From Candidatus Falkowbacteria bacterium (GTDB lineage Bacteria > Patescibacteriota > Patescibacteriia > XYB2-FULL-38-15), in NCBI GenBank assembly GCA_016214745.1, contig JACRNW010000001.1:67150-131149 (forward strand): a stretch of 64,000 nucleotides of DNA, read 5' to 3'. Below the pieces are notes generated by a model. That model was not told the origin of the DNA. It searched no databases and saw only the letters and a program-made list of their open reading frames with translations. How positions within the stretch are numbered: the first letter of the stretch is position 1; each line of letters begins with the position of its first letter. Positions 23,583 to 59,010 of this stretch are shown here, in pieces. The position numbers were made by a program, and so were the translations under genes.

Positions 23583-23960
23583 TTATTTACGGCCCTTAAA
23601 TTTCAAAATACTTGACCCCAAAAGATTTGCAATTTCCGTAACTTCGACCAATAACTTATTGATTGCGACCCTGTCTCCCTTACCGCTGTCGCGAAGTAAT
23701 GCCAACCAATATTTTGTTTCATTGGCAGATTTTAACGCGATATTTATAAAATTGGTGAAATCTTTTTTAGATCCACAGGCCTGTGCTTCAATAATATTTG
23801 CTCCAATGCTCGTTGCGCTACGAAGCATTTGTCTAACTATTACTTGGACGGAAAAATCCTTCTTATCAAGTTGATCTATAAATCGAATAATAGCCAAAGA
23901 AAACCTATAAACTTTTTCTTTTAGAAAAGTTTTATATTCTTTATTGTCCATAACTTTCAA
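23583..23960 (-). CDS. four-helix-bundle protein (23S rRNA intervening-sequence protein family, PF05635)
   Basis: Family-typical FSLAIIRFIDQL...RQMLRSATSIGANIIEAQAC...ALKSANETKYWLALL. Confidence 0.7.
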   Translation of the reverse strand: MKVMDNKEYKTFLKEKVYRFSLAIIRFIDQLDKKDFSVQVIVRQMLRSATSIGANIIEAQACGSKKDFTNFINIALKSANETKYWLALLRDSGKGDRVAINKLLVEVTEIANLLGSSILKFKGRK

Positions 23961-24692: not shown

Positions 24693-24750
24693 GGGAGTCC
24701 TGCCTTTAGGCAGAGACTGGAGTTTGTCTCGCCCTAAAGGGCGGTCTCCG
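24693..24750. repeat. REP-like hairpin pair (types A and B) flanking the RAYT gene
   Basis: GGAGTCCTGCCTTTAGGCAGAGAC and GTCTCGCCCTAAAGGGCGGTCTCC. Each folds as a GC stem with a TTTA/TAAA loop. Type B is roughly the reverse complement of type A. Confidence 0.6.
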
Positions 24751-25285
24751 GTTCGTTAGTTATAAAATCAACAATCGGATATAATTCAAAACACGAGTCA
24801 AACCACTCTTCTCCTTTTATTTTACTCCAACTTTTCGCGCTTGAAAAGGGATAACCAAAAACGCCGACCAAATTTTTACAAAACCCATGTTTTATTGGAT
24901 TTTGGTGAATGTAATTAAAATGTTTCCAAAAATCCGCTTCGTCGCGGATTGAATGGTCAAAATATTGATACCAGATTTTACGGCCTTTCTCATTTTCCGA
25001 TTTATTTAATTCAAAAGAGCTTTTGCCGTTAATGAAGTTAATAAATTTAGATAAATTTTCTCCGTTAAAAATTTTAAACAACAAATGGAAATGATTATCT
25101 AACAACACCCAGGCGTATAAATGAATCTCAAATTTTCGGAGTCCTGCCTTTAGGCAGAGACAAAATAATTTCTTTTTAGAATCCATGTCAAAATATGGTT
25201 TCCGGTCCACAGTTCTCGCGGTAATAGAATAAATTGTGTTGTCGAAAAAAATATGTGGCGGATGGTGATGTTGCGAGTGAAGCAT
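24734..25285 (-). CDS. REP-associated tyrosine transposase (RAYT; IS200/IS605 Y1-transposase-like)
   Basis: IHLYAWVLLDNHFHLLF is the HuH motif. 183 aa, flanked by REP hairpins. Confidence 0.68.
   Translation of the reverse strand: MLHSQHHHPPHIFFDNTIYSITARTVDRKPYFDMDSKKKLFCLCLKAGLRKFEIHLYAWVLLDNHFHLLFKIFNGENLSKFINFINGKSSFELNKSENEKGRKIWYQYFDHSIRDEADFWKHFNYIHQNPIKHGFCKNLVGVFGYPFSSAKSWSKIKGEEWFDSCFELYPIVDFITNEPETAL
25139..25162. repeat. REP type-A copy lying inside the RAYT coding sequence (in frame, encodes LFCLCLKAGL)
   Basis: The 24-nt ggagtcctgcctttaggcagagac is identical to 24694-24717. Confidence 0.6.
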
Positions 25286-25293
25286 ATGGTTTT

Positions 25294-25401
25294 GGTCTCG
25301 CCCTAAAGGGCGGACTCCGGTGAAATTGAGAGACGGACTCCGGCTTGGAGTCCTGGCTTTAGCCAGAGACCATTGTCGTCTCGCCCTAAAGGGCGGCCTC
25401 C
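25294..25401. repeat. REP-like hairpin cluster (B, A-variant, B) on the other side of the RAYT gene
   Basis: ggtctcgccctaaagggcggactcc ... ggagtcctggctttagccagagac ... gtctcgccctaaagggcggcctcc, plus the GGACTCCggcttGGAGTCC palindrome. Confidence 0.6.
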
Positions 25402-41691: not shown

Positions 41692-42436
41692 AGCCCCAGT
41701 TCAGGGGCAGCGGATCAGCTGGACCAACTTGCATCGGCCCATTTGACCACATCTCGCACCCCGTCTGCTGGGGTGCAGGGATTTCCGGGGAGGGAGAAAC
41801 GGAAACCCCCACACTCTCCTCCTCGTCCGCCATGTGATGGCGGACTTACGAATTGTCCCTCCGGGAGGTTGCTACGGACGCTGGTTCCGCAGGTTGCAGC
41901 CGCCCAATCGGTTGTCGACGCTCCAGAATGCATCCGGAACGCCGCCAAGCGTGGCGCTGTGAGAACCCTGCAGAGTGCCGGGCGGGTAGGGACCAACGCA
42001 GCCCCAGAACGGCGGCGCAAGTTCGGCCACCGTCTGGTACTCAATGTACCAACCCGGATCGAGGGCCACGCTGAAGCAAACGGAGCTCACGCTCGTCGCC
42101 TCAACCAAGACGCTCCAGGGACCGGTGCAGACAAGACGGCCGTCAAGACCGTCAGTCGGACCCATGGAGATCGTCGTGCCGACGCAGCCTTCGATCGCGA
42201 TCCTCGGAGCGACGGCGCCCGCGTCCCAGCAGTGAGTGTACCTGCCGGGGCCGGTGCAGCCGTCGTCTACGACCGTGTCGCAGTCATCATCCGTCCCGTT
42301 GTCGCAGATCTCGGGGCGGACCACGGAGCAGCTCGTACTGCATCCGTTGTCGATGAAGCCGTCACAGTTGTCGTCCAACCCGTTGCCGCAGATTTCCGGC
42401 GGCACGGGTCCGCAGGTCCCGCAGGAGTTGAGTAAC

Positions 42437-42574
42437 CCTTCGTCGATCGAGCCGTTGCAGTCGTTGTCCACGCCGTCGCAGGTCTCGGGCGAACCCGCGA
42501 TCTCGCCGGCGCAGACGCCCCAGCGACCACCGCTGCAGGTCTGGGTACCACGGGCGCAAGCGCCCATGTCCGTC
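42437..42574. repeat. 138-bp repeat, identical to 43158-43296 (Cys-rich repeat unit)
   Basis: Direct comparison. Encodes ...TDMGACARGTQTCSGGRWGVCAGEIAGSPETCDGVDNDC in the true frame. Confidence 0.8.
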
Positions 42575-43157
42575 CGGCTGAGTGGTGCCGTCGACGCAGG
42601 AGCAACCCTCGTCGATGTCGCCGTCGCAGTCGTTGTCGATCGTGTCGCAGGATTCGGAAGCGGCCGGAGCGACGTAGCCGACGCAGACACCCCAGTAACG
42701 TCCGTCCGTGCACGTCTCGAGCCCACTCACGCAGGCCCCGAGGTCCGTCCCACAAGCTCGGGTTGCCCCGGGCGTGCAGATGCAGTCCTCATTGACGAGA
42801 CCGTTGCAGTTCTCGTCCAACGTGCCGGTGCAAACTTCCGGGGCGGGTCCGACGAAACCGGTGCAAGCGTTCCAGCGGCCCATGACGCAAGTCTGGGTTC
42901 CGCGAGAGCACTCGCCCGTGTCGTCGCCGCAGGGCTGGGCCGTACCGTTCACGCAAGAACAGCCCTCGTCCACTTCGGTGTCGCAGTCGTTGTCCAGCGT
43001 GTCACAGGTCTCGGGGGCAGGAGGCAGGAAGCCCACGCCGCCGCAGTCGGACCACTGTCCGGCTCCGAACCCGTTGTTCAAACAGGTCCGGGTCCCCATG
43101 ACGCACTCGCCGAGGTCGGTACCGCACGACTCGGAAACGCCGATGGTGCAGGTGCAC

Positions 43158-43296
43158 CCTTCGTCGATCGAGCCGTTGCAGTCGTTGTCCACGCCGTCGC
43201 AGGTCTCGGGCGAACCCGCGATCTCGCCGGCGCAGACGCCCCAGCGACCACCGCTGCAGGTCTGGGTACCACGGGCGCAAGCGCCCATGTCCGTCC
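43158..43296. repeat. 138-bp repeat, second copy
   Basis: Identical to 42437-42574. Confidence 0.8.
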
Positions 43297-44766
43297 TCCG
43301 CGAGGAGCGGATCACAGACCTCGGTGTCGGGGGCGATACCCGTGCAGTCGCTCCAGAATCCGCCAATGCAGAACTGGGCACCGAGCGTGCACTCACCCAT
43401 CTCCTCGCCGCAGAGGCGAGAAGAAGTTCCGACGCACTCGCAGCCTTCGTCGATCGTGGTGTCGCAATCGTTATCCACGCCGTCGCAGGTTTCGGAGGCG
43501 GGACCCGTGCCAAGGCACAGTCCCCAGTGACCGCCCATGCAATACTGGAGGCCGGTGGCGCAGGCGCCGATGTCCGTACCGCAGACGCGACCGTCGCCGG
43601 ACCGACATTCGCAGTCTTCGTCGATCGAGCCGTCGCAGTCGTTGTCCGAGCCGTCGCAGTACTCCGGGGTCACGACGCCGCAGGAGCCGCACGCATTGAG
43701 CAGCCCCTCGTCGACGCGACCGTCGCAGTTGTCGTCGAAACCGTTGCAGATCTCGGCCGACGGAAAGTGCTGGGGCTGACATGGGCCGTAACCCGAGTCA
43801 TCCGCCAGACAGAACATCCGACCCTCGGCACAAGCGCCGAGGAATCCCGGAATCATGCAGTCGATCGGCAGGCCGGTGTGATCGCAGGCGCAGCTCTCGT
43901 CGACTCGTCCGTCGCAGTTGTCGTCCACGCGGTTGCCGCAGACTTCCGGATTCTCATCCGGCCGAGTCGTGGGCTCGCAGACGTCGGAGTAACCCGATCC
44001 GTCCGCGAGACACCGCATCTCGCCGACCGCGCAGACGCCGGGAATGAGGGTGTTGCAGGGAATGACGTCGCCCAGGGGGCAAACGCCCTCGCCGCACACA
44101 CCGTCTTCGTCGGTCTCGCCGTCGCAATCGTTGTCCACGCCGTCGCAGGTCTCGGTCGTGCCGGCGCAATCCGGCGTGCCGGCGCAGTGGCCGGTCTCGT
44201 CGCAGTACATGCCGAGCGAACAGTCGATGAACGCATTGCAGATCGCGCGGCACTCGCCGCGGAAGCACTCTCCGACTTCGCAGTCGGAGTCCGAGGTACA
44301 CTCGTACCCCGCGTAGAAGGTGGTGCCCCCGCCGCCGCAGCCGAAGCTCGCGGCGCCGAGCACCGTGGTACACACGCACACCAAGATCCAGTTCGTCCAG
44401 TTCCTCATGTTCTCCCTTTCCATCTTCCTGTCCCTCCTCTTGTGCGGTGGAGCCGCACGCGGCAGATCCGCCGCCAAAAACCGAACTACCAACGTCAATA
44501 CCGTGCCTTGTTTACGGCACGGCAAACTCCTCCGCACGGATGTGCGAAGGAGAGATTACCAAAATTCCTAATTGTCAACGAACAGCAGTTTTTGACCTTT
44601 TATCTTTATTTCACAACAAGAAAGAGGGTTTTTATCCCCCTCCTTCTCGGTCAAAAACCGCACACTATAATTTAACATAAACTACAAATTTGTCAAGAGG
44701 ATAAAACAAAAACAGAGGATTTGACCCCTGCTTTGTTAAAACGTTTTATTCTTTATTTTTTTACTG

Positions 44767-45349: not shown

Positions 45350-45892
45350 TTACTTCTTGCCAACCGTCACAGAGAGTCGGCCTCCCTGAAAACTTAATGG
45401 TTGTTCAATTTTTGTAGACACTAAATTATTAAGCGCGTTGATAAATTGACTGGCGACTTCCCGTGCCATATTGGCGTATTGTCTTTCTCTGCCTTTCAAA
45501 ATAATTTCTATTTTTACTTTATCACCTGATTCTAAAAAATCTTTGGCCTGATTTAATCTAACGTCGCGATCGTGCGAACTGATACGAAGGGAAAGCCGGA
45601 CGCCCTTAATTTCTACTTTTTTTGCTTTAGCTTTTTGCTTTCTTGCTTCTTTATCCTTTTGATACAAAAATTTTCCGTAGTCAAGAATTTTGGCGATCGG
45701 AGGATCGGCTTTAGGAAAAACTTCTACCAAATCCAGCTCTCGCTCGCGGGCGATCCGCACCGCCTCCGGTACGGCCATCACGCCGAGATTTTGTCCATTC
45801 TCATCAATGACGCGGACCTGGGGCGCCTTTATTTGTTCGTTAATCCAATAATTAACCGTTTGAACTTTAACTTGTTTTCTTGAAATGCGCAA
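45350..45892 (-). CDS. infC: translation initiation factor IF-3
   Basis: INEQIKAPQVRVIDENGQNLGVM...ELDLVEV...KGRERQYANMAREV. The true start may be a non-ATG codon upstream. Confidence 0.85.
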   Translation of the reverse strand: MRISRKQVKVQTVNYWINEQIKAPQVRVIDENGQNLGVMAVPEAVRIARERELDLVEVFPKADPPIAKILDYGKFLYQKDKEARKQKAKAKKVEIKGVRLSLRISSHDRDVRLNQAKDFLESGDKVKIEIILKGRERQYANMAREVASQFINALNNLVSTKIEQPLSFQGGRLSVTVGKK

Positions 45893-45915
45893 GGTTTTTA
45901 ATTTTAATATTAAAT

Positions 45916-45940
45916 TATTTTGGTGGAGATGGCGGGAATT
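45916..45940. repeat. 25-nt direct duplicate of the tmRNA 3' end (tattttggtggagatggcgggaatt)
   Basis: Identical to 46081-46105. Lies ~165 bp downstream of the intact tmRNA 3' end. Confidence 0.7.
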
Positions 45941-46085
45941 TCACTGCTCGCTCACTTCGTTCACTGCGCTTTAAAACTCTGCGGTTTTAATATTTCCGCG
46001 AACGGAAACCTTACGGTTTCCGACCCTTCCCTGGTTCAATTCCCTATCTCAGATAACAAACTATTTTTTAATTTCTAATTTATTT

Positions 46086-46469
46086 TGGTGGAGATGGCGG
46101 GAATTGAACCCGCGTCTAGAAGTCTTCGACAAAACGAATCTACAAGTTTAGCTAAATTAAATTTTTAAAACACAAGGTATAAATTTAGCAAAATCCTTGT
46201 GCCCGAGGCCTATTAATTTTCAAAAATTTCTCTAAGCCAAAGAAATTTTCTATCTCGGTTATGACACCGGGACCCGCCTACCGAGAGTCGGCGGCCGATG
46301 TGCCGCGGCTAGTTAAGCCGTGGCAGGAGCAAAGCTCGGAACGCGAAAAGCGCTCTTTACCTTGTTAAATAAGTTTGCACTTATTGATTTTGCCAAAGTT
46401 TTGCGAGATTGTGGCAATACTCGACTTGCTCATTTTGTAAAGAACTCCTATCGAGGCCTGTCATCCCCA
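46086..46469 (-). ncRNA. ssrA: tmRNA (transfer-messenger RNA)
   Basis: 3' end ...GACGCGGGTTCAATTCCCGCCATCTCCACCA (T-arm plus acceptor with encoded CCA). A candidate 5' end GGGGATGACAGGCCTCGATAGG pairs with the 3' acceptor strand. Directly follows smpB. About 384 nt. I could not resolve the tag reading frame. Confidence 0.6.
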
Positions 46470-51732: not shown

Positions 51733-52265
51733 TAAATGTCTGATAAAAATAGTTCGTTTTAAACTAAAGGCAAATTGCGTTTTTCCGCTTGAATAAAGGC
51801 CTTTATAGATCCCCGAAGCTGTTTGGCTTGGCAAATTTTAGTGGTAATTGGCTTATATTGAGAAGCCAGATTTACCCTCGTTCTTTATCAATCACCAGGC
51901 CAAACGACTCTGGGGTTCTATGGCAGTACTTTTGCGGCGAACCACAGTTTAAAGAGTAAAAGTTATAAAAAAGTTGAAATGATAGAGAGTGCTTTCTACA
52001 TTAGTCCACTTCTCTTAAACTGCGGTTTCCTGCAAAGGATGGTACTTTGACAAATTGAATAACAACGGGCTTTAGCTCTCCGCCGACGAAGCGGATTGAT
52101 GCGCGCCTGATGAAATAGAGGGATAAAATCCTCTTTCTCAGGCTTAGGCCTGTTGACGATATATAAAACAAAACCCCCGGAGCGTGGTTGTTCCGGAGGT
52201 TACAAGTTTGGACACCATAACCGGCTTCGCGAGACGCGGGGCCAACGAAGGGAAGGAGTTCCTAG

Positions 52266-53090
52266 ATGACGAAGACCTTCGCGACGATGTTCGTGTTCGC
52301 GATGCTCTGCGTCCCGGCGATCGCCGAGGCGCAGCAGCAACTGGCCGATGGCGAGGCGCGTGCGCTCGTTTGCGGACCCGGAGAAATCCAGGTCTGCACC
52401 GAGACGCAGGCCGACGGCTCGGCTCCCCGGGTCATGTACCTGAGGGGAAGCCCGGTCATCGACTGCGTAGTTCGTTCCGAGACCGGAATCCAGCTCGAAT
52501 GTGTGAAATGGGAAGACGCCTGCAAGCGGGAATCCTGCGACAGGCGCGGCGGAAACTGGCACTGGGATGAGAGCTCGTGTCACTGCGACTACGAACGGCC
52601 GAGGGAAAGCCCTCCGCCGTCCGCGCCGCCAGCTCAGCCTCCGGGCCCGACGACGCCTCCGGTTCAACCCGGCCCGACGCCGACCTGCCCGGACTGCAAC
52701 GTGAGCCTCACGGTCTGTCCGAACGAGGAGATCGCGAGACTCGCGAACGAGCTTGCGCCTCTGGCGCAGGTCGCTCCCGAGACCTGGATCGTCCGGTCCG
52801 ACACGGATGAACTGAGGACGCGAGTCCTCTACATCCGCGATCGGGCGGCGGTGTGCGGCGAAGATAGAATCTTCGTCGACGCCGAGCGAGTACTGGCGGC
52901 AATGACGCCGCCGGAACCGAGTACGCTCCCATCGGGACCGCCGATGTCGAGCTACGAGGACGAGGAGAACTTCTGCACCAATTCGTTCGGCGGCGTACTG
53001 GTGTGCATCGTGCTGCCGACCGTGGCGGCCGGTGCCGCCATCTTCCTCGGTGTCTGGTTTGGCACCGAGTGGGAAGCGACCCAGGAGTAG
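52266..53090 (+). CDS. secreted Cys-containing Pro-rich protein with a C-terminal TM anchor
   Basis: GGAAGGAG RBS. Signal peptide MTKTFATMFVFAMLCVPAIAEA. PPPSAPPAQPPGPTTPPVQPGPTP linker. C-terminal TM helix. Confidence 0.55.
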   Translation: MTKTFATMFVFAMLCVPAIAEAQQQLADGEARALVCGPGEIQVCTETQADGSAPRVMYLRGSPVIDCVVRSETGIQLECVKWEDACKRESCDRRGGNWHWDESSCHCDYERPRESPPPSAPPAQPPGPTTPPVQPGPTPTCPDCNVSLTVCPNEEIARLANELAPLAQVAPETWIVRSDTDELRTRVLYIRDRAAVCGEDRIFVDAERVLAAMTPPEPSTLPSGPPMSSYEDEENFCTNSFGGVLVCIVLPTVAAGAAIFLGVWFGTEWEATQE

Positions 53091-53172
53091 TGTTCGTCAA
53101 CCCGGGGTCGGCGAGGCGGAAGCCCGTCGACCCCACAGAAGCTTCTGCCCCGAGAGGGCAGGGAGGGATGAG

Positions 53173-54183
53173 ATGAAGAACGTGAACCTGTTCGGGCTGT
53201 TCGTGTGCGTGATGGTGCTGGCGTCCTGTCAGGACGTCCAGCTCCCCGATCCGATCCACGTGTGTGAGGACAGCAACAACGACGACGTTTGCGACGGCGA
53301 CCAGGACGGCGATTCCGTCCCCTGGCAGTACGACAACTGCCCGCGGGCCGACAACCCCGACCAGGCCGACTGCGACGGCGACGGGATCGGCGACGCCTGC
53401 GACGACTTCGACAACCGGGATGCCGGCGCCGATGCGGACGCGGATGCGGATGCGGATGCGGATGCGGACGACTACGAGGGCGACGAGCCCGGCGAGTGTA
53501 CGGACGACGCGGACAACGACCGCGATGGTCGCTTCGACTGCGACGACCCGGGCTGCGTGAGCGATCCGGCGTGCGTCGCGGCTCCGTTCTGCGGCGATCA
53601 CGCCTGCAACGACAGCGAGACCTGCGCGAGCTGCCCGGCCGACTGCGGCATCTGCTCGGCAACCTGCGGCGACTGGGTATGCAACGGTTCCGAGACGTGC
53701 GCGACCTGCGCTCACGACTGCGGCACCTGCCCGGCGCCGATCTGCGGTGACGGCATGTGCAACGGCACCGAAACCTGCGAGACGTGCGCGTCCGACTGCA
53801 CCGGTTGCGCCGGCGACATCTTCGTCACGATCCGCGTGACCTCGTCTGACGCCTACCCCGCCGAAATTCATGTCTACTTCGCCGCTGATCCCCGGGATGT
53901 GGATGGCACCGACTCGGGCATGGCTCCCTACCAGACCAGTTTGACCCAGGCTCAGGCCTGCGGCCGAGTGGAAGGGGTGGAGGTCAGCGCCCGTCAGTTC
54001 TCGACGGCCGACCGCCCGTGGTACGGAACGCTCGGGATCCTAGGTCGTCTGACGATCCAGGTGAACGGCGTCGCCTACCCGGATGCGGCTGCTGGTCGTG
54101 CGGCTCTGCCGCTGATCGACCAGCCGTGGGGCGACCCCAACATCCATATCTCCCGGGCAGTTCTCCACTGCCCCGGTTCGTAG
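53173..54183 (+). CDS. lipoprotein with thrombospondin type-3 Ca-binding repeats and four CGDxxCNGxETCxxCxxDCGxC Cys-rich repeats
   Basis: Start MKNVNLFGLFVCVMVLASC (LASC lipobox). DGDQDGDSVPWQYDNCPRADNPDQADCDGDGIGDACD is a TSP3 repeat. Contains a (DA)n tract. Confidence 0.62.
   Translation: MKNVNLFGLFVCVMVLASCQDVQLPDPIHVCEDSNNDDVCDGDQDGDSVPWQYDNCPRADNPDQADCDGDGIGDACDDFDNRDAGADADADADADADADDYEGDEPGECTDDADNDRDGRFDCDDPGCVSDPACVAAPFCGDHACNDSETCASCPADCGICSATCGDWVCNGSETCATCAHDCGTCPAPICGDGMCNGTETCETCASDCTGCAGDIFVTIRVTSSDAYPAEIHVYFAADPRDVDGTDSGMAPYQTSLTQAQACGRVEGVEVSARQFSTADRPWYGTLGILGRLTIQVNGVAYPDAAAGRAALPLIDQPWGDPNIHISRAVLHCPGS
53431..53472. repeat. hexanucleotide microsatellite (GATGCG/GACGCG)x7 encoding (DA)n
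   Basis: gatgcggacgcggatgcggatgcggatgcggatgcggacgac. Confidence 0.85.
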
Positions 54184-54295
54184 ACCAACCAACAACTTAC
54201 CTGTTTAGTCCCTTGTCCCGACGCAAGTCGGAACAATAACAGGCAAGTCCAACAACCACAGACGCGACCTAGGGCGGTTGCGACTGCTTCGACAA

Positions 54296-54333
54296 GGCCA
54301 GCTTTCCTCCGGATTGCTGGCCTTCTTTTTTTA
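54296..54333 (+). terminator. rho-independent terminator
   Basis: GGCCAGCtttcctccggattGCTGGCC then TTCTTTTTTTATT. Confidence 0.6.
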
Positions 54334-54452
54334 TTATCAAGCGAGTGAGACCCCGGCAAGGCGGGACGAGCGAGCGCAGATAACACGGAGTATTTAAAAG
54401 TAATATTTTTAATTTAATCTCGTTTTAATACAAACTGGCCAAAACCAGTGTT

Positions 54453-54494
54453 TTGTCACACAACCTTGACAAATCCGGCATTCCGTTGTAATCT
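54453..54494 (+). promoter_or_regulatory. sigma-70-type promoter (TTGACA-17-TAATCT) overlapping the palindrome TTGTCAcacaaccTTGACAA
   Basis: -35 at 54466-54471. A second hairpin CTGGccaaaaCCAG sits just upstream. Confidence 0.45.
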
Positions 54495-54592
54495 ATAATG
54501 TTAGTTCATTGAACAACCCTTGCCGCAAGGCGAGGTAAAAATATAGTAAGTAGTTCACCTAAACTAAACATGCCGTCAAGGAGGGAAACAAG

Positions 54593-56311
54593 ATGGCAGA
54601 GAAGAAGAGTGGTGGCCTGCACTCTCCGATCGACGGCCGGCTAATCGCCGGGCGTTACAAGGTCGTAGATCCCGAACCTATCGGCCGGGGCGGCATGGGT
54701 CTCGTCTATCGCGGTTTCGACATCCGCACGAAGAGATCCGTTGCCATCAAGATTCTGCACGAGCAGTTCCACGGTATGCCCGACGTGGTTGCTCGGTTCC
54801 GCACGGAAACCGATGCGGTGAACCGTGTCGGCCACGAAGGCATTGTTGTCATCCTGGACTGTGCCCAGCCGGAAGAAACTCCGGTCTTCTTCGTCATGGA
54901 GTACCTGGACGGGAAAACGCTCGCCCAAGTGCTCGACGAGAATGGCCAGAGAGGCAAGCCGCTTCACGTCCAGCACATCCGCTACATCGGCTTGAAGCTT
55001 CTCGAGACGCTGGAAGCGGTCCACGAAAGCGGAATTATCCATCGCGACCTGAAGCCGGAAAACGTCTTCATCCTCGGGCTGCTAAGCAAGCGATATCGCG
55101 TCAAGCTTCTCGACTTCGGGATCGCGAAGTTCAAGGAAGCCGATCCCAAGCTGACTCAGGTGGGCACGATAGTGGGCACGCCCCTTTACATGTCACCTGA
55201 ACAGTGTCGGGGCCTCCCCGTCGACTACCGAACCGACCTCTACGCGATCGGCTGCATCCTCTACGAGATGGCAACCGGCCGACCGCCTTTCGTGGGCGAC
55301 CTGAGCGAAGTCCAACAGGGTCACCTCTCTCGTCTCCCGGAAGCTCCGAACGATCTGAACGGGGAAATCCCTCCGGCGCTCAACGCGGTCATCATGACGG
55401 CACTAGCTAAGGAACCGGACAACCGATTCCGCGACGCCGAAACCATGCGCGAAGCGCTCGAAGACGCCGTCCCCGAGGACAAGATGTTCTGGCGGGACAG
55501 CCGGCCGCCTTCGCCGGTGAACGGCAGCAGGGTGCTCGCCACTCCGCCGCGCATTCCAACCGCGATGGAGGATCAGCCAACGTCAGAGCGGCTCGACTCG
55601 TCTAAAACCCCGACTCGTCTGCTCGCTGACAAGCGGCCGCCGGCCGGGATCGCCTTGGCGAAAACCATGACTCCGGCTGACCTGAAACGGGCAGTTGATG
55701 AGGAGACGGCGCACCAGTTCGCCAAGAACTTCGGCGTCTGGATCCTGAAGCCCTCGAGTCGGGCGGCAGTGATCGCGATCGGCAGTACCCTCCTCATCCT
55801 CACCATCGTGTTCGTTCTTCTCGCGGCTTACCCGCCCAACACCGGCAAGCGCGCAAGAACGGCCGACGCTGGCGTCGAGGTCAGCACGACGGCGGTTGTC
55901 GTTTCCGAGAAGGAAACTCCTCCGCAGCCGAGCGGCCAGCCCGACGTCATCGTCCTGCCAGTTCCGGTTCCAGTTCCTCGGGACGACGCGACAACCGACG
56001 AGCCGAACGAAGTCGTCGAGATGGACGCAGTAGAAACTGCGGCCAACGCTGGCCCACCGGACGGCTACGCCGAACTACTCGCGGCGGCGGAACACGCCAG
56101 GAACTGGCGCACGGCCGTCGGAAGACTCGAGGAGGCAACAGAACTCTGGCCTGAAGGACCAGATGCCTGGAAAGAACTGGGCAACGTCTTCATGATGCAT
56201 GGGGAAATTCGGAAGGCCAGAGAAGCCTTCCGGACATGCCTCGACCTTCTGCCTCCGGACGCGTTCGTCCAGCGGGCACAAGTGGAGGGACGACTCAGGG
56301 GCCTGCAATAG
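54593..56311 (+). CDS. Hanks-type serine/threonine protein kinase with a C-terminal TM segment and a TPR-like tail
   Basis: GGAGGG RBS. GRGGMGLVYRG (P-loop), VAIK, HRDLKPENVFI, DFGIAKF, GTPLYMSPEQ. A TM helix near residue 400. Confidence 0.85.
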   Translation: MAEKKSGGLHSPIDGRLIAGRYKVVDPEPIGRGGMGLVYRGFDIRTKRSVAIKILHEQFHGMPDVVARFRTETDAVNRVGHEGIVVILDCAQPEETPVFFVMEYLDGKTLAQVLDENGQRGKPLHVQHIRYIGLKLLETLEAVHESGIIHRDLKPENVFILGLLSKRYRVKLLDFGIAKFKEADPKLTQVGTIVGTPLYMSPEQCRGLPVDYRTDLYAIGCILYEMATGRPPFVGDLSEVQQGHLSRLPEAPNDLNGEIPPALNAVIMTALAKEPDNRFRDAETMREALEDAVPEDKMFWRDSRPPSPVNGSRVLATPPRIPTAMEDQPTSERLDSSKTPTRLLADKRPPAGIALAKTMTPADLKRAVDEETAHQFAKNFGVWILKPSSRAAVIAIGSTLLILTIVFVLLAAYPPNTGKRARTADAGVEVSTTAVVVSEKETPPQPSGQPDVIVLPVPVPVPRDDATTDEPNEVVEMDAVETAANAGPPDGYAELLAAAEHARNWRTAVGRLEEATELWPEGPDAWKELGNVFMMHGEIRKAREAFRTCLDLLPPDAFVQRAQVEGRLRGLQ

Positions 56312-56316
56312 GCCCT

Positions 56317-56368
56317 GGGGCAACCACGCAAGATGTCAAACATCAAGCGTGGCTGCCCCTCTTTTTTA
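56317..56368 (+). terminator. rho-independent terminator
   Basis: GGGGCAaccacgcaagatgtcaaacatcaagcgtggcTGCCCC then TCTTTTTTATTTT. Confidence 0.6.
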
Positions 56369-56383
56369 TTTTATAAAAAAACC

Positions 56384-56412
56384 TTGACAAAAAAATACTT
56401 TTGTGGTTAGAT
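56384..56412 (+). promoter_or_regulatory. putative promoter (CCTTGACA-17-TTAGAT)
   Basis: -35 TTGACA at 56384-56389. The -10 is weak. Confidence 0.35.
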
Positions 56413-56474
56413 ATAAAGTGCTCTAAATGGGCGCAAGGGGGAGGCACGGGGCCTCCCTTAGATTTTAGGAGGGA

Positions 56475-57563
56475 ATGGAGATGAGGTTCATCACCCTGAT
56501 CGTGGCGGTTCTTTTCGCCCAGAACGCGTTTGCCCAGACGTCGGAGTCGACCGAGCAGACGGAGCAGTCCGCTGCGCCGGTCATCCTCGGCGAAGCCGGC
56601 AACGCGGCTCTCACGAGCTGCCTCGAAGCGGACGACGGGACCCAGTGCTGCACCGACTACGGCGACTGCGTGCAGAATTTGGGAGACAACTCCGAGCAGT
56701 GCGCTGCGGTCGCCCGACTGTGCGGGCACCAGGATCTCGACGCCGCCATGCGGGAAGGCTGCCAGCAGCGGAACGCGATCGTACAGGGCAGCGAATGCGC
56801 CTGCGCCGCGGGCTTGAGCTGGAACAACGAAAGCGACAAGGTTTGCTGCACAGCAAACCCCGCCACCTACGAACGCCGGCGAAACGCCTGCGAGCATTCC
56901 GGCGGAACCTACCACTGCAACAGCCGGGGCGGATGGTGCGGCTGCCCACTCGGCATGAGCCACCCGATCGAAGAGGATGGCGATGTCGACTACTCCTCCT
57001 GCACCGGCGAAGCGGTGAACCGCGAACGGCTCCAGGCGATGCGAGACAACATCGCGACTCTTACTGCCGAGGTCGAGGAAGCCGGACAACAGATCGCCGC
57101 CCTCCAAGCCGAGCGTGACGCCCTTCGAGCGCAGCTCGACCAGACTCTCAGTCAGCTGGCCGAGCTGGACAACCTCGAGGACACGGTCGGCGAGATGGAA
57201 CAACGGCTCGCCGAGATGGATGCCGAACTCTCGTTCTTGCGTCACCTGCGCGACCAGTACGAGGAATTCATCGCTCGGCAGGCGCAGACGATCGCCGATC
57301 TTGGCGGAATTCCTCCTCTCCCTCCGGGCATTCCGGAAGAGGATGAACCCCTCCCGGGAACAGCGGCGGCGGTCGCGGAAGCGGCAGGCGGAAGCCGGCC
57401 CGGACCGATGGAGCCACTACCCCCTCCCGAAGAGGAAGAGGGCAACTGGTGCTCCGAAAACGGCTGGGCATGCGCCGGTATCATCATCGGCGCAGCAGCC
57501 GCATTGGCCGGGGCAACCGTCGGGATCGTGGAGGCGACCCGCGACATTCAGGTCACTCAGTAG
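56475..57563 (+). CDS. secreted Cys-rich protein with a long coiled coil and a C-terminal TM anchor
   Basis: Signal peptide MEMRFITLIVAVLFAQNAFA. 16 Cys in the N-terminal domain. Heptad-like region LQAMRDNIATLTAEVEEAGQQIAALQAERDALRAQLDQ... C-terminal GIIIGAAAALAGATVGIV. Confidence 0.55.
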   Translation: MEMRFITLIVAVLFAQNAFAQTSESTEQTEQSAAPVILGEAGNAALTSCLEADDGTQCCTDYGDCVQNLGDNSEQCAAVARLCGHQDLDAAMREGCQQRNAIVQGSECACAAGLSWNNESDKVCCTANPATYERRRNACEHSGGTYHCNSRGGWCGCPLGMSHPIEEDGDVDYSSCTGEAVNRERLQAMRDNIATLTAEVEEAGQQIAALQAERDALRAQLDQTLSQLAELDNLEDTVGEMEQRLAEMDAELSFLRHLRDQYEEFIARQAQTIADLGGIPPLPPGIPEEDEPLPGTAAAVAEAAGGSRPGPMEPLPPPEEEEGNWCSENGWACAGIIIGAAAALAGATVGIVEATRDIQVTQ

Positions 57564-57592
57564 TTCTCGGGATTTCCTCCACCCGAGGACCA

Positions 57593-57641
57593 GGCCGACG
57601 TTTTGAGACAATCGTGTCTCGGACGTCGGCCTTTTTTTATC
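57593..57641 (+). terminator. rho-independent terminator
   Basis: GGCCGACGttttgagacaatcgtgtctcggaCGTCGGCC then TTTTTTTT. Confidence 0.65.
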
Positions 57642-57642
57642 T

Positions 57643-57684
57643 GTCAACTCCCCTTGACAAAACTTAAAAAATATGGTATATTTA
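57643..57684 (+). promoter_or_regulatory. sigma-70-type promoter (TTGACA-17-TATATT) overlapping the palindrome CTGTCAActccccTTGACAa
   Basis: -35 at 57656-57661, -10 at 57679-57684. The element closely matches the 51691 element. Confidence 0.5.
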
Positions 57685-57877
57685 CTTGTTCTGAAACGAA
57701 TGGAAAACAGTATCTACATAAACAAAATTGGATCCTGTAGTAGTTTGGTTTGATACCTGGGTTGCCTCCTCCTCAACCTCTTGGTTTTCAAATCAAACTA
57801 CTCAAGGACCCAACAAAATTGGTCCAAGCAACTCGGGATGGGTCCCGGGTTGAGAGAGTTTGGAAAGGAAAGCGCTG

Positions 57878-58984
57878 ATGGCGAATGGCAACAAGGTCTC
57901 AAGCTCCCTCCAGATTACCGGCCTGAAGCCCGACATCACGGAAGAGAAAATCCGTAGGGCTGTCGGCGAAATCGTCGGAGTGGGGCAGGACGGGATCTCC
58001 AACGTGGATATCCGGCGACGCGAAGATGGCAGGCCCGAGGAGCGAGGCGCGAATGCCGTCGTCGCCTTCAAGGATGTCGCAACGGCGACGGTGGCGAAGG
58101 CGGGACTTGGCGCAGGCAAGCTGTGCAGAATCCCCGACCTGAATCCCGACCGCGAGATCATGGCCGACTTCTACTTTCCTCCGCGGCCGCGCGACGAGAG
58201 GCCGCCGGCCACACCCCCACCCGCCGCACCCTCGATCGATCCGAACCAGCTTACGGCCATTGTGGCCGAACTCGAGGCCAGGCTCAAGGCCGACGCCGGA
58301 TTTCTGGCGAAGGTCAGGGGCAAGGACGGCGTAGCGCCGACGAAGGACGAGATCGTCGCGGCCCTCCGGTCCTTCCTGGTCACCGACCTCAAGGCTGCTC
58401 TGGCCCCGGTGCTGAAGGTTGACCTCAAGAACGACCCGACCTTCCAGGACCTGATCAAGGGCACTCCCGGCAAGGACGGCCCCGCGAAGGATGAAGTCAT
58501 CGCGGCGCTCAAGGCCGACGCCTCCTTCAAGGCGGAAGTCAAGGGCGAGAAGGGCGATGACGCACCCCGGTGGCCTCACTGGGTCTTGGTGGTTTTTGCC
58601 ACCTTGGCGTTCATCGTCATGCTCGGCCACCTCGTCTGCGGAAGCAGCGGCGACCAGGGTCCGCAGGGCGTCCAGGGCCAGGTCGGTCCCCAAGGTCCGC
58701 AAGGGCCCAAGGGCCCGATCGGACCGCGTGGTCCCGAAGGCTCCCAGGGTCCGCAGGGCGAACCCGGAGCCGCGGCGACCACAACGGTCGCACCGGCGCC
58801 GAGCGCGGAGCCGCCCGTCGAACCGGCGGCCACGGCGCCGCCCAGCCAGGCAACGCCGACGGGACGGCCCAACATCACGGAAGTGGATGGGCGCGAGCTC
58901 ATCCGCCACCAGCTGGACGACGTGTCCGTCCTATTCCGTGAGATCGATCGGAGGACCCGGCAACTGGAGGAAGCGCGCCAGTAG
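57878..58984 (+). CDS. membrane-anchored collagen-like (13 x G-X-Y) protein with GKDG...DEIVAAL repeats
   Basis: ATG at 57878 (MANGNK). TM helix [59 protein letters not shown]. Repeated GKDG(V/P)A(P/K)(T)KDE(I/V)(V/I)AAL(R/K) units resemble phage tail-fibre-like repeats. Confidence 0.58.
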
Positions 58985-59010
58985 ACGCGAAGGAGTATCT
59001 ACTGATCCAT

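Follow-up and report, generated by a model that had tools for sequence, protein, structure and literature searches.

A small non-coding unit with host-matched flanks, probably an integrative element mobilised in trans, at tmRNA and tRNA genes of Patescibacteria

[quoted passage not shown] The stretch of DNA analysed here (64 kb of contig JACRNW010000001.1, referred to below as the window) contains an exact direct repeat of 26 nt, 45915-45940 = 46080-46105 (TTATTTTGGTGGAGATGGCGGGAATT on the + strand), with 139 nt between the copies and 165 nt from start to start; in its longer form the ssrA direct repeat reaches 39 nt at 87% identity. The 26-mer has two matches in the window, as compared to 0 in 100 dinucleotide shuffles. 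As the boundaries of the tmRNA gene, which a first-pass annotation of this DNA had wanted fixed, ARAGORN and Rfam agree on 46086-46468 (minus strand). The repeat is made up of the final 20 nt of ssrA (46086-46105, mid T-loop to CCA) and 6 nt beyond the gene (46080-46085, AAATAA on the gene strand, downstream of ssrA). The same annotation had described a repeat of the gene's 3' 25 nt (46081-46105 and 45916-45940); the repeat is real, but it is 26 nt long, and the wording was wrong because just 20 of these are genic.

Comparing the ssrA-infC spacing in related genomes, another of its proposals, gave a direct answer: seven close relatives (L001, L002, L004, L104, L105, L107 and L108) have an empty site, and the window with exactly 165 nt taken out is identical to L107 and L108, which indicates a clean insertion. 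The insertion at ssrA that had been claimed is therefore borne out, but not its attribution to an integrase: there is no integrase Pfam match among the 47 ORFs of the 64-kb window, no reverse transcriptase or recombinase there save an unrelated Y1_Tnp/REP system, and none of these adjoins any other copy of the unit described below. The arrangement has Campbell topology, with a gene-proximal end that is element-borne and a distal copy that is native. This is seen directly in L114, in which the proximal end has no CCA and runs into a type-B spacer common to L006 and L112, and the distal copy keeps CCACCA together with what lies beyond the native tmRNA end in L014. By analogy with L114, the proximal copy in the window, which is the present working 3' end of ssrA, would be either element-delivered or a hybrid of both copies. 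The insert is nearly harmless to the host, since the ssrA 3' end is restored and the native end-plus-leader junction is rebuilt before infC. No promoter or terminator consensus was found between ssrA and infC, so the insert lies within the smpB-ssrA-infC-rpmI-rplT transcript.

On the smpB+ssrA tree the presence of the unit is patchy, L102, the nearest relative of the window (flanks 92-96% identical), holds a different insert, and close relatives have repeatedly gained or lost the unit. We also observed that the ssrA-infC junction in this lineage is a hot spot, taken alternately by the unit, by GIY-YIG cassettes or by PD-(D/E)XK cassettes. The first-pass annotation had considered a historical link between the insert and a nearby high-GC island (its island 1). 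This link was dropped, because the 'island' is a conserved MopE-repeat gene that occupies the same place behind rplT in relatives whose junction is empty or holds GIY-YIG or PDDEXK, i.e. irrespective of junction state.

The features of the locus are listed below in gene-strand order, with variants from other copies and from L048 (a possible distant relative found between rpmI and rplT, without tRNA-derived flanks) where they help.

46086..46468, minus strand: tmRNA gene ssrA, intact, tag peptide ANLFNKVKSAFRVPSFAPATA then stop (ARAGORN; Rfam RF00023, 166.5 bits, model positions 1-374)
46080..46105, minus strand: proximal repeat copy, consisting of AATTCCCGCCATCTCCACCA, from position 57 in the T-loop as far as CCA, and AAATAA
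46051..46079, minus strand: type-A spacer, ATTAGAAATTAAAAAATAGTTTGTTATCT
46045..46050, minus strand: GAGATA, complementary to the acceptor 3' strand ATCTC and, as read from the sequence, the remnant of an outer inverted arm
46033..46044, minus strand: inverted T-arm copy, GGGAATTGAACC (the + strand reads GGTTCAATTCCC)
46027..46032, minus strand: purine-rich linker AGGGAA (AGAAAAA in L114, GGAGAG in L048)
46000..46026, minus strand: core hairpin P2, GGGTCGGAAACC-GTAA-GGTTTCCGTTC
45991..45999, minus strand: conserved junction GCGGAAATA, with GGAAAnA kept in all copies, L048 included
45971..45990, minus strand: core hairpin P3, TTAAAACC-GCAG-(A)GTTTTAA
45941..45970, minus strand: variable region ending in the semi-conserved GAGCAGTGA
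45915..45940, minus strand: distal repeat copy, the displaced native ssrA 3' end plus AAATAA, then the native ssrA-infC leader; the empty site of L107/L108 is identical from here on
45350..45914, minus strand: native leader (45893-45914) and infC

The unit contains a host-matched 3'-end copy starting in the T-loop, an AT-rich spacer, an inverted copy of the host T-arm, and a two-hairpin core (~65 nt) with a variable stretch; it measures 165 nt in the window and ~140-190 nt elsewhere, and the 139-nt interior of the insert is non-coding. The type-A spacer is derived from the element and not from the host, as its start is common to the spacers of the tRNA-Glu copies (AAATAAATTAGAAATTAAA). The counterpart of GAGATA in L090 is GTAGCC, complementary to GGCTAC. 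The 12-mer on the + strand identifies the next segment as an inverted copy of the tmRNA T-arm segment 46099-46110; it is a perfect complement of tmRNA positions 52-63 and covers the insertion point. This is the T-loop-like fragment that had been placed at 46034-46045 and called stray. It exists, one base away from that position (46033-46044), and far from being stray it is a constant, host-specific component of every copy. P2 and P3 fold in every copy: the P2 loop differs among copies and its stem has compensatory changes in L114 and L048, and P3 in L048 has one additional A-U pair, added on both sides. The variable region is 14-40 nt in other copies and forms a clean hairpin in L006 and L086. 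In 9 copies, the inverted arm pairs with the direct arm in 85% of cells; the tmRNA and Thr types have central mismatches, at T-loop positions 55-56, and the two arms show no significant covariation. An RNAalifold helix 'P1' (core GGGAA with TTCCC of the distal repeat) was dropped as a general feature, since AGAAAAA stands at that place in L114.

The first-pass annotation had taken the sequence between the repeats for a decayed or deleted element; the 139-nt interior is instead intact and strongly conserved, and recurs behind four t(m)RNA genes with host-matched flanks. The same unit is found at tmRNA (the window, L003, L091, L006 and L114/L115), at tRNA-Glu(CUC) (L086, L088, L090, L093 and L096), at tRNA-Thr(CGU) (L087) and at tRNA-Pro(GGG) (L097), giving a total sample of ~12 copies, all co-oriented with the host gene. 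The longest exact complement in the left flank is 10-14 nt to the copy's own host vs 4-7 nt to other hosts, except between tmRNA and tRNA-Pro, which have a common T-loop, and the right flank of each copy is the 3' end of its own host gene. Core identity across hosts is 92-97%, a range that looks inflated, with limited diversity, because the metagenome search demanded a 20-nt exact match within the core. Between the window and L006 the core is 93.8% identical, as compared to 74% for tmRNA and 69% for smpB DNA; among the tRNA-Glu loci the values are 96% for the core, 79% for the spacer and 61% downstream (identities for the 'up_gene' and 'far' windows, which were out of register, are left out). 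Genes downstream of the unit vary (infC, a yidC-like gene, a lipoprotein gene; a terminator in L087), with infC directly downstream in the window, L003, L006 and L114. The duplicated block is 17, 26, ~50 or 89 nt long depending on the copy, which fits recombination through a shared block or a tandem history and not a fixed staggered cut. A chance repeat or an assembly artefact, the latter named by the first-pass annotation among the things that would overturn its claim, is practically out of the question. Only the general possibility of artefactual repeats in metagenome-assembled genomes speaks for it, against which stand the shuffles (0 of 100 with even one additional 26-mer match) and an identical architecture across independent projects and assemblers. 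Artefact is excluded because that architecture is found in independent NCBI, JGI and Logan assemblies (L003, L091, L006, L114/L115).

We searched for known families and for a longer relative of the unit. Using Rfam 15 on the whole window at the gathering threshold, and on the unit and three other loci at E ≤ 10, only tmRNA and tRNA were matched (the group I intron model RF00028 gave no match at either setting), and the units of L048, L087 and L090 had no match at E ≤ 10. The model tmRNA_permuted scored 28.2 bits on the unit region (gathering score 47), a weak score due to the true tmRNA 3' end. Genome, metagenome, viral, phage and plasmid searches (exact 18-20-mers, with the loci examined) revealed no longer relative or autonomous parent, and no excised or circular form has come to light. 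Three patterns found no true match in viral contigs, five matches to an 18-mer being rejected as chance (flanks without similarity), blastn against phage and plasmid collections gave no match, and exact look-ups of the window's SmpB, IF3, L35 and L20 found none on record. A covariance model (R1) run over 743 kb of Patescibacteria DNA produced no further convincing members; its match L053 (E=0.004) was discarded, being located inside a tmRNA. The conserved unit is unlike anything in the Rfam, phage, plasmid and viral collections searched.

The window probably holds an intact small integrative element, non-coding and non-autonomous, host-matched and mobilised in trans, that targets the stretch from T-loop to 3' end of tmRNA and tRNA genes in Patescibacteria. 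The observed traits include a clean insertion relative to empty sites, presence at four or more host genes with matched flanks, no protein gene, and a core far better conserved than neighbouring DNA. Mechanistically, the element would recombine with the gene via the common 17-26-nt 3'-end block, using an enzyme encoded elsewhere; its own 3'-end copy would complete ssrA, and the displaced native end would remain as the second repeat copy. The inverted T-arm copy may supply target matching, in one of two ways. Folded back on the direct copy, it could recreate the target site as a duplex within single-stranded DNA, like CTXphi attP1/attP2 or integron attC; or it could be a guide, pairing with target bases on both sides of the crossover point. 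The recombination machinery would then recognise the core as a scaffold, and an excised circle or tandem copy would carry the junction core-3'end-spacer, ...GAGCAGTGAAATTCCCGCCATCTCCACCAAAATAAATTAGAAATT.

Several known systems resemble the unit in part. The identity block from T-loop to 3' end, together with a full-length tmRNA, is as in an integrase-type island at ssrA. In Ms6, the 26-base attP core corresponds to the T-loop-to-3'-end of tRNA-Ala, and editing the core retargets integration (PMC1762012). As with Ms6-type integrases and the ssrA islands of Dehalococcoides, the block runs from the 7-nt T-loop to or past the gene 3' end (PMC1762012; PMC3146451). In such islands, too, the element gives a replacement 3' end, the native end is displaced and left as a direct repeat, and the block is matched to a particular host gene. 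The unit differs from them in being only 165 nt long, without integrase or cargo, in having the additional inverted T-arm copy, and in its two-hairpin core common to copies at different genes. CIMEs are att-flanked, cis-mobilizable remnants of ICEs or IMEs without integration genes (PMC5704250). The unit likewise has attL/attR-like repeats of tRNA ends and no integration genes, and would be non-autonomous with a presumed recombinase in trans, but CIMEs are kilobase-scale with one parent and one site, whereas the unit has ~140-190 nt and is conserved over several genes and lineages. A MITE was rejected, since the inverted arms are host-derived and host-specific and the duplicated block is not of fixed length.

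The CTXphi attP(+) site has attP1 and attP2 in opposite orientation, ~90 nt apart, in a 150-nt forked hairpin (PMC3089051). The unit also has two inverted target-site copies ~100 nt apart that can pair as an imperfect duplex image of the target, as in folded attachment sites, and after integration non-functional copies adjoin the restored functional site in both. However, nothing about the unit points to a single-stranded stage, an Xer or IntI recombinase or a replication module; its target is the t(m)RNA T-arm and not dif or attI, and its intervening 'loop' is a conserved structured core. With the IS110 bridge RNA (PMC11208160) and the omega/right-end RNAs of IS200/IS605 it shares a constant structured non-coding scaffold with copy-specific short segments, of which the inverted arm matches the target and the direct copy the element-target junction. 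Unlike these, the unit has no recombinase or TnpB/IscB gene inside it, beside it or in the window, its guide-like segment is one contiguous 10-14-nt stretch and not split loops, and there is no sequence or Rfam similarity to them. The only HUH transposase of the window (Y1_Tnp) has its own, unrelated REP-like hairpins, which sets the locus apart from IS200/IS605, and as a candidate helper it was rejected, no link having been made. Group I introns in t(m)RNA genes (including the tmRNA T-loop introns of Bacillota) also sit in a loop of a structured RNA gene and have an internal segment complementary to both sides of the insertion point, and those of Patescibacteria, located in the tRNA anticodon loop, are from the same phylum (PMC13011429). 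The unit, in contrast, leaves the gene uninterrupted and has no RF00028 match. We rejected a group I intron on three grounds: the core is too small (~100 nt vs about 200 nt or more), no model matches, and the published introns are in the anticodon loop (PMC13011429).

The intron-like features are taken further if the unit is an element acting at the RNA level, transcribed with ssrA and harmless like an intron or a retroelement. On this reading, which seems unlikely to us, the core would be either a small ribozyme or a scaffold serving host enzymes for ligation or reverse transcription. The inverted T-arm would be an internal guide that pairs with GGUUC 5' of the insertion point in the T-loop and with AAUUCCC 3' of it (in the order of group I P10/P1), and a new copy would form when the unit inserts into a t(m)RNA and is then reverse-transcribed and recombined. 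The unit does lie on the sense strand inside an operon transcript (neither a promoter nor a terminator consensus separates ssrA from infC), and every copy is co-oriented with its host gene. Host positions 54-56, part of the gene but absent from the distal repeat copy, are matched by the inverted arm, G-U pairs lengthen P2 in L006 and L114 (possible on the sense strand only), selection for host gene function plus guide pairing would account for the host matching of both flanks, and Patescibacteria are unusually rich in self-splicing introns (PMC13011429). However, the core of ~100 nt is far below the size of any ribozyme of group I or group II, Rfam gives no family match even at E ≤ 10 (ribozymes included), the window has no reverse transcriptase, splicing is unneeded in an uninterrupted gene, and the P2 and P3 stems are purely Watson-Crick and would equally fit DNA hairpins.

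The strong core conservation in orthologous tRNA-Glu loci might mean a host-useful function instead. A structured RNA of this kind, serving as a 3' trailer or 5' leader that aids processing of the t(m)RNA precursor or regulates the downstream gene (infC here, rplT in L048), would be inherited mainly vertically, with the tRNA-like 3' end used for maturation or stability. We consider this quite unlikely, even though the core in those loci is conserved like the tRNA itself (96% vs 79% for the spacer), the window, L003, L006 and L114 copies are directly upstream of infC, the possible relative L048 precedes rplT without tRNA-derived flanks, and pairing of the inverted arm with the direct one could give a minihelix whose 3' overhang is CACCA. 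The closest relatives have neither the unit nor a replacement, so the unit is dispensable; the same core at four unrelated host genes, with clean empty-site counterparts, indicates insertion events; downstream genes differ (infC, yidC-like, lipoprotein, the L087 terminator), and no Rfam leader or riboswitch matches. A leader of the r-protein/IF3 type was rejected for a related reason, as the tRNA-Glu, tRNA-Thr and tRNA-Pro copies precede unrelated genes. We judge it improbable that the locus is a one-off, functionless scar, in which a larger integrase-bearing island or prophage at ssrA lost its interior and left attL and attR ~140 bp apart, in the manner of a CIME. The direct repeat of the gene's 3' end beginning in the T-loop, the relatives with empty sites and the Campbell topology would all suit such a scar, integrated elements are documented to decay into att-flanked CIMEs (PMC5704250), and ssrA is a known integration hot spot (PMC3146451). 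Debris would be lineage-specific, though, and the ~65-nt core is 92-97% identical behind four host genes, in lineages whose tmRNA is only 74% identical. A longer version bearing an integrase was absent from the genome, metagenome, viral, phage and plasmid searches, and the inverted T-arm copy, unexpected in attL/attR remnants, is host-matched in every copy.

If the unit is an integrative element mobilised in trans, as we favour, Patescibacteria have their tRNA and tmRNA genes occupied by ~150-nt elements without a protein gene, seemingly pared down to the bare cis-acting minimum, although each copy keeps two segments fitted to the gene that hosts it. This would raise the questions of which enzyme moves them, whether the target is chosen by base pairing (as a guide or a folded attachment site), and by what means the two matched segments are adapted once the element moves to another gene. 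Only tentatively do we propose a more specific reading, a mobile module free of protein genes whose target is programmed by nucleic-acid complementarity: the two-hairpin scaffold would recruit a recombination or ligation activity encoded elsewhere or be catalytic itself, the 10-14-nt T-arm complement would pick the gene, and the matched 3'-end copy would make insertion harmless. Such a module would be a natural, minimal and retargetable insertion system in the reduced genomes of Patescibacteria. The ssrA-infC junction offers a natural system for following how minimal selfish elements come and go in very small genomes. In practice, the units can pass for island scars in island finders based on att repeats, and they break metagenome assemblies at tRNA genes. 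In L097, L115 and L112/L113 the contig breaks off within or at the unit, which is what a repeated or polymorphic sequence would lead one to expect.

The locus sits in a Patescibacteria genome of low GC, on its minus strand. MAGs labelled Patescibacteria or Falkowbacteria are the nearest relatives in public databases, and smpB-ssrA-infC synteny is kept phylum-wide. The boundaries of the tmRNA gene were checked with ARAGORN and Rfam (full-length model, 166.5 bits), which agree.

46917-46474, minus strand: smpB, first in the order smpB-ssrA-unit-infC-rpmI-rplT
46468-46086, minus strand: ssrA (tmRNA gene)
between ssrA and infC, minus strand: insert unit, 165 nt
45892-45350, minus strand: infC, followed by rpmI, rplT and a high-GC MopE-repeat gene

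The direct duplication of the tmRNA 3' end reported by the first-pass annotation was confirmed: 26 nt at 45915-45940 are identical to 46080-46105 (two matches in the window, none in 100 shuffles), the repeat reaches 39 nt at 87% identity, and chance or an assembly artefact is excluded. It is not simply the last 25 nt of the gene, as had been stated, since only 20 of the 26 nt are genic (mid T-loop to CCA) and 6 nt lie past the gene. The T-loop-like fragment noticed between the copies is also present, one base away from the position first assigned (46033-46044) and on the strand opposite to the gene; it repeats the tmRNA T-arm in inverted orientation. The ssrA-infC interval matches neither a promoter nor a terminator consensus, and good promoter matches lie upstream of and within smpB, so the unit is almost certainly transcribed, in sense orientation, as part of the operon RNA. 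The infC start is apparently TTG or ATT (…AACCTTGCGCATTTCAAG…, window 45885-45895) with no evident Shine-Dalgarno sequence, and the infC leader is almost invariant across relatives, which suggests a constrained translation-initiation signal immediately 3' of the tmRNA end.

When ssrA-infC spacing was compared in relatives, it varied sharply among the closest ones. At loci L001, L002, L004, L104, L105, L107 and L108 of other assemblies, the spacer is the AT-rich leader alone (25–45 nt); in L107/L108 it reads CCACCA-AAATAATTTAATATTAAAATTAAAAACCTTGCG, matching base for base the window sequence after the second repeat copy. The window thus equals an empty site plus 165 nt, and the unit is a clean insertion. 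L003 and L091 hold the window's unit, and in the more distant L006 and L114/L115 (SmpB 73% and 71% identical) a homologous unit with a different spacer is recognisable.

Using a 20-mer from the unit interior, a metagenome scan found eight genuine copies, behind tRNA-Glu(CUC) (five), tRNA-Thr(CGU), tRNA-Pro(GGG) and tmRNA genes (one each); eight more matches are unrelated high-GC coding sequence. All genuine copies are co-oriented with the host gene and share one layout: host gene, spacer, inverted copy of the host's own T-arm, a core of ~65 nt, a variable stretch, and a direct copy of the host's own 3' end that begins in the T-loop. Host-matched flanks thus occur at at least four genes, and the earlier description of a decayed or deleted element fails, as the interior recurs behind other t(m)RNA genes, conserved and in constant layout. 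The longest exact complement of the inverted arm is 10–14 nt in its own host vs 4–7 nt in other hosts, except for tmRNA and tRNA-Pro, which have the loop TTCAATT in common. In the window and L090 (a tRNA-Glu copy), complementarity runs on, gapped, into the acceptor strand (GAGAT/ATCTC; GTAGCC/GGCTAC), and the arm resembles positions 52 to ~73 copied in inverse orientation, with decay from its outer end. A second tRNA-Glu(CUC) (L090:2824-2897) lies ~1 kb downstream of the element-bearing one, in a locally high-GC stretch.

Core identity is 92–97% over all host genes (the scan query biases the first 20 nt of the core, not the remainder). Window and L006 share 93.8% identity in the core, against 74% in the tmRNA genes and 69% in smpB DNA; across the five orthologous tRNA-Glu loci, identity is 96% in the core, 79% in the adjacent spacer and 61% in the downstream sequence. 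Two hairpins are predicted in all copies, P2 (CGGAAACC-loop-GGTTTCCG, loop variable) and P3 (TTAAAACC-GCAG-GGTTTTAA), and the diverged members L114 and L048 keep both through paired changes (P2 is CGGAAAAAC/GTTTTTCCG in L114 and CGGGAGAACC/GGTTCTCCCG in L048, where P3 gains one A-U pair). L048, located between rpmI and rplT without tRNA-derived flanks, is graded a possible distant relative because it matched at only E=0.002 before inclusion in the model. Its intergenic stretch (L048:5492-5641), with no tRNA nearby, has the GGGTCGG-hairpin-GGAAAnATT-hairpin-AAAG layout of the core plus extra GNRA-capped hairpins, and could be an ancestral form, a domesticated one or an rplT leader. An RNAalifold helix between core GGGAA and distal TTCCC was rejected as a general feature, as L114 reads AGAAAAA there. 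The inverted and direct arms are pairable in 85% of cells; a statistical test found no covariation for this pairing, and L088 has one compensatory double change (GAG/CTC vs GGG/CCC in sister loci). Folding energy of the whole unit is modestly better than that of shuffles (z = -2.1 sense, -1.7 antisense).

The ends of the L114 unit settle which repeat copy is native. Its gene-proximal end reads ...CCATCTCCA|TTTATAAACTTTACAAAAT, with CCA not encoded and a spacer start common to L006 and L112; its distal copy, ...CCATCTCCACCA|CGTAAAATCACTCTT...TCTAATTCATAATCTACAAAACCTTGCG, is the native tmRNA end followed by both ends of a GIY-YIG cassette (intact in L014). These ends make the distal copy the original gene end and the proximal copy the one that came with the element. 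The topology is that of the Campbell model, in which a circular element bearing its own version of the gene 3' end recombines with the gene. The spacer start AAATAAATTAGAAATTAAA is alike in the window and the tRNA-Glu copies, so the spacer, of which types A and B are distinguishable, moves with the element. [quoted passage not shown]

In a neighbour-joining tree built from smpB+ssrA, one clade (L006, L112, L114) is marked by the type-B unit, a pattern compatible with descent. Type A is distributed patchily: it is found in the window and L003/L091 and missing from the window's sister L102 and from L001, L104, L014, L002 and L105. L102 is 92–96% identical to the window in flanking DNA, and its junction holds a PDDEXK_3 cassette instead; repeated gain or repeated precise loss of the unit is required. 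In L097, L115 and L112/L113, contigs break off within the unit or at its edge, as expected of a repeated or polymorphic sequence. A GIY-YIG cassette occupies the junction at three other loci.

L005:4850-5233, L007:4991-5368, L014:4834-5233: GIY-YIG insert (junction = window 45893-46085)
L102:3401-3920, L106:3371-3836, L103 (cut by contig end): PDDEXK_3 insert, same junction

The GIY-YIG ORF (~90 aa; PF01541, E 1e-12 to 1e-15) is preceded by a long hairpin with a T-arm-like loop (GGTTCATTCCCG), at whose base the last five tmRNA bases (CACCA) pair with a downstream TGGTG; from locus to locus the hairpin varies in sequence but keeps this pairing. The PDDEXK_3 ORF (PF13366, 125 aa) lies between inverted CGCAAAAGAC/GCGTCTTTGCG repeats, and the window's nearest relative (SmpB 98% identical), which holds this insert, has a tmRNA gene ending in ...CTCCA, CCA not encoded. 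L110:2869-3033 and L111 (same coordinates) carry a hairpin-only insert of ~165 nt after the tmRNA CCA (CGTACAA...TTGTACG, then TGGTCCACCA); the gene strand lacks a GIY-YIG ORF there, and the insert may be a cassette remnant.

No protein gene is linked to the unit: its 139-nt interior is non-coding, and the genes adjoining the tRNA-Glu copies have housekeeping roles (murF-, ftsI-, yidC-, hrcA- and grpE-like). The integrase implied by the first-pass annotation was sought at the locus, and among the 47 ORFs of the window, Pfam scans detected neither an integrase or serine recombinase nor an IS110-type enzyme or reverse transcriptase. The sole mobile-element protein there is Y1_Tnp (IS200-like, PF01797; 24734-25285, minus strand). 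Its own REP-like hairpin, CCGCCCTTTAGGGCGAGAC, unrelated to the unit, surrounds it in three exact copies, together with related hairpins (window 24694-25400), one of them (GTCTCTGCCTAAAGGCAGGACTCC) inside the ORF near 25160; the whole resembles a RAYT/REP system. Next to it, at 23583-23960, is a gene for a 23S_rRNA_IVP four-helix-bundle protein. The unit matches no Rfam family and nothing in phage, plasmid and viral collections, and full-text literature searches found no description of it.

The unit is best filed as a non-autonomous element at t(m)RNA gene ends. We think it fairly probable that it is integrative and recombines by way of the 3'-end block common to element and gene, the enzyme being provided in trans, and hold the details with less confidence. 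The insert duplicates the gene end and the first leader bases, restoring ssrA and re-creating the native junction before infC, which could be why it is tolerated. The inverted arm might form part of a folded single-strand attachment site mimicking the T-arm duplex, much as attP1 and attP2 of CTXphi, in opposite orientation ~90 nt apart, pair into a 150-nt forked hairpin mimicking dif (PMC3089051); the unit's arms are ~100 nt apart and would mimic a T-arm duplex instead of dif. In the tmRNA and Thr types, the arm duplex would be mismatched at its centre, at loop positions 55-56. Alternatively, the arm might serve as a guide: it matches host positions 52-56, present in the gene only and missing from the element's direct copy, and lies across the crossover point, ordered as an internal guide would be.

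This guide geometry would also fit an RNA-level mechanism, intron- or retroelement-like, which we consider unlikely for want of a plausible catalyst; the group I introns reported from tRNA genes of Patescibacteria sit in the anticodon loop and are ribozymes of full size (PMC13011429). Strong conservation of the core across orthologous tRNA-Glu loci would suit a purely host-functional RNA, but the unit is dispensable in the closest relatives and the downstream genes are varied, making this quite improbable. A one-off island scar is contradicted by recurrence, conservation and the host-matched inverted arm alike, and is very improbable. In the literature searched, we found no description of this combination of host-matched inverted T-arm, conserved structured core and no protein gene.

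The proposed historical link between the repeat and high-GC island 1 was not upheld: the 42–44.7 kb block codes for a MopE-repeat protein, and relatives with empty, GIY-YIG, PDDEXK and element-bearing junctions have a high-GC homologue after rplT. It is a conserved syntenic gene whatever the junction state, unconnected with the repeat.

41900-44700: high-GC block (GC 0.64-0.66 vs ~0.40 background)
41872-42726 and 43002-44537, minus strand: MopE-motif repeat protein(s)
54593-56311: Ser/Thr protein kinase with TPR repeats, second high-GC block
57860-58984: collagen-repeat protein, second high-GC block

Most relatives keep the MopE-repeat gene in synteny behind rplT (it is missing in L007), and the plus strand of its block holds long, spurious-looking ORFs. 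The second block (window 52000-59000, GC 0.55-0.68) also encodes a coiled-coil protein and several ORFs without Pfam match; horizontal transfer, a conserved compositional oddity (as for the MopE gene) or chimeric assembly are possible origins. Window 5600-29300, of intermediate GC (0.48-0.53), encodes a series of proteins of very large size, secreted or at the surface (Big_1/Invasin_D3/Big_5 Ig-like domains, FG-GAP repeats, a subtilase), interspersed with glycosyltransferase and O-antigen-type genes, and looks like a large cell-surface locus.
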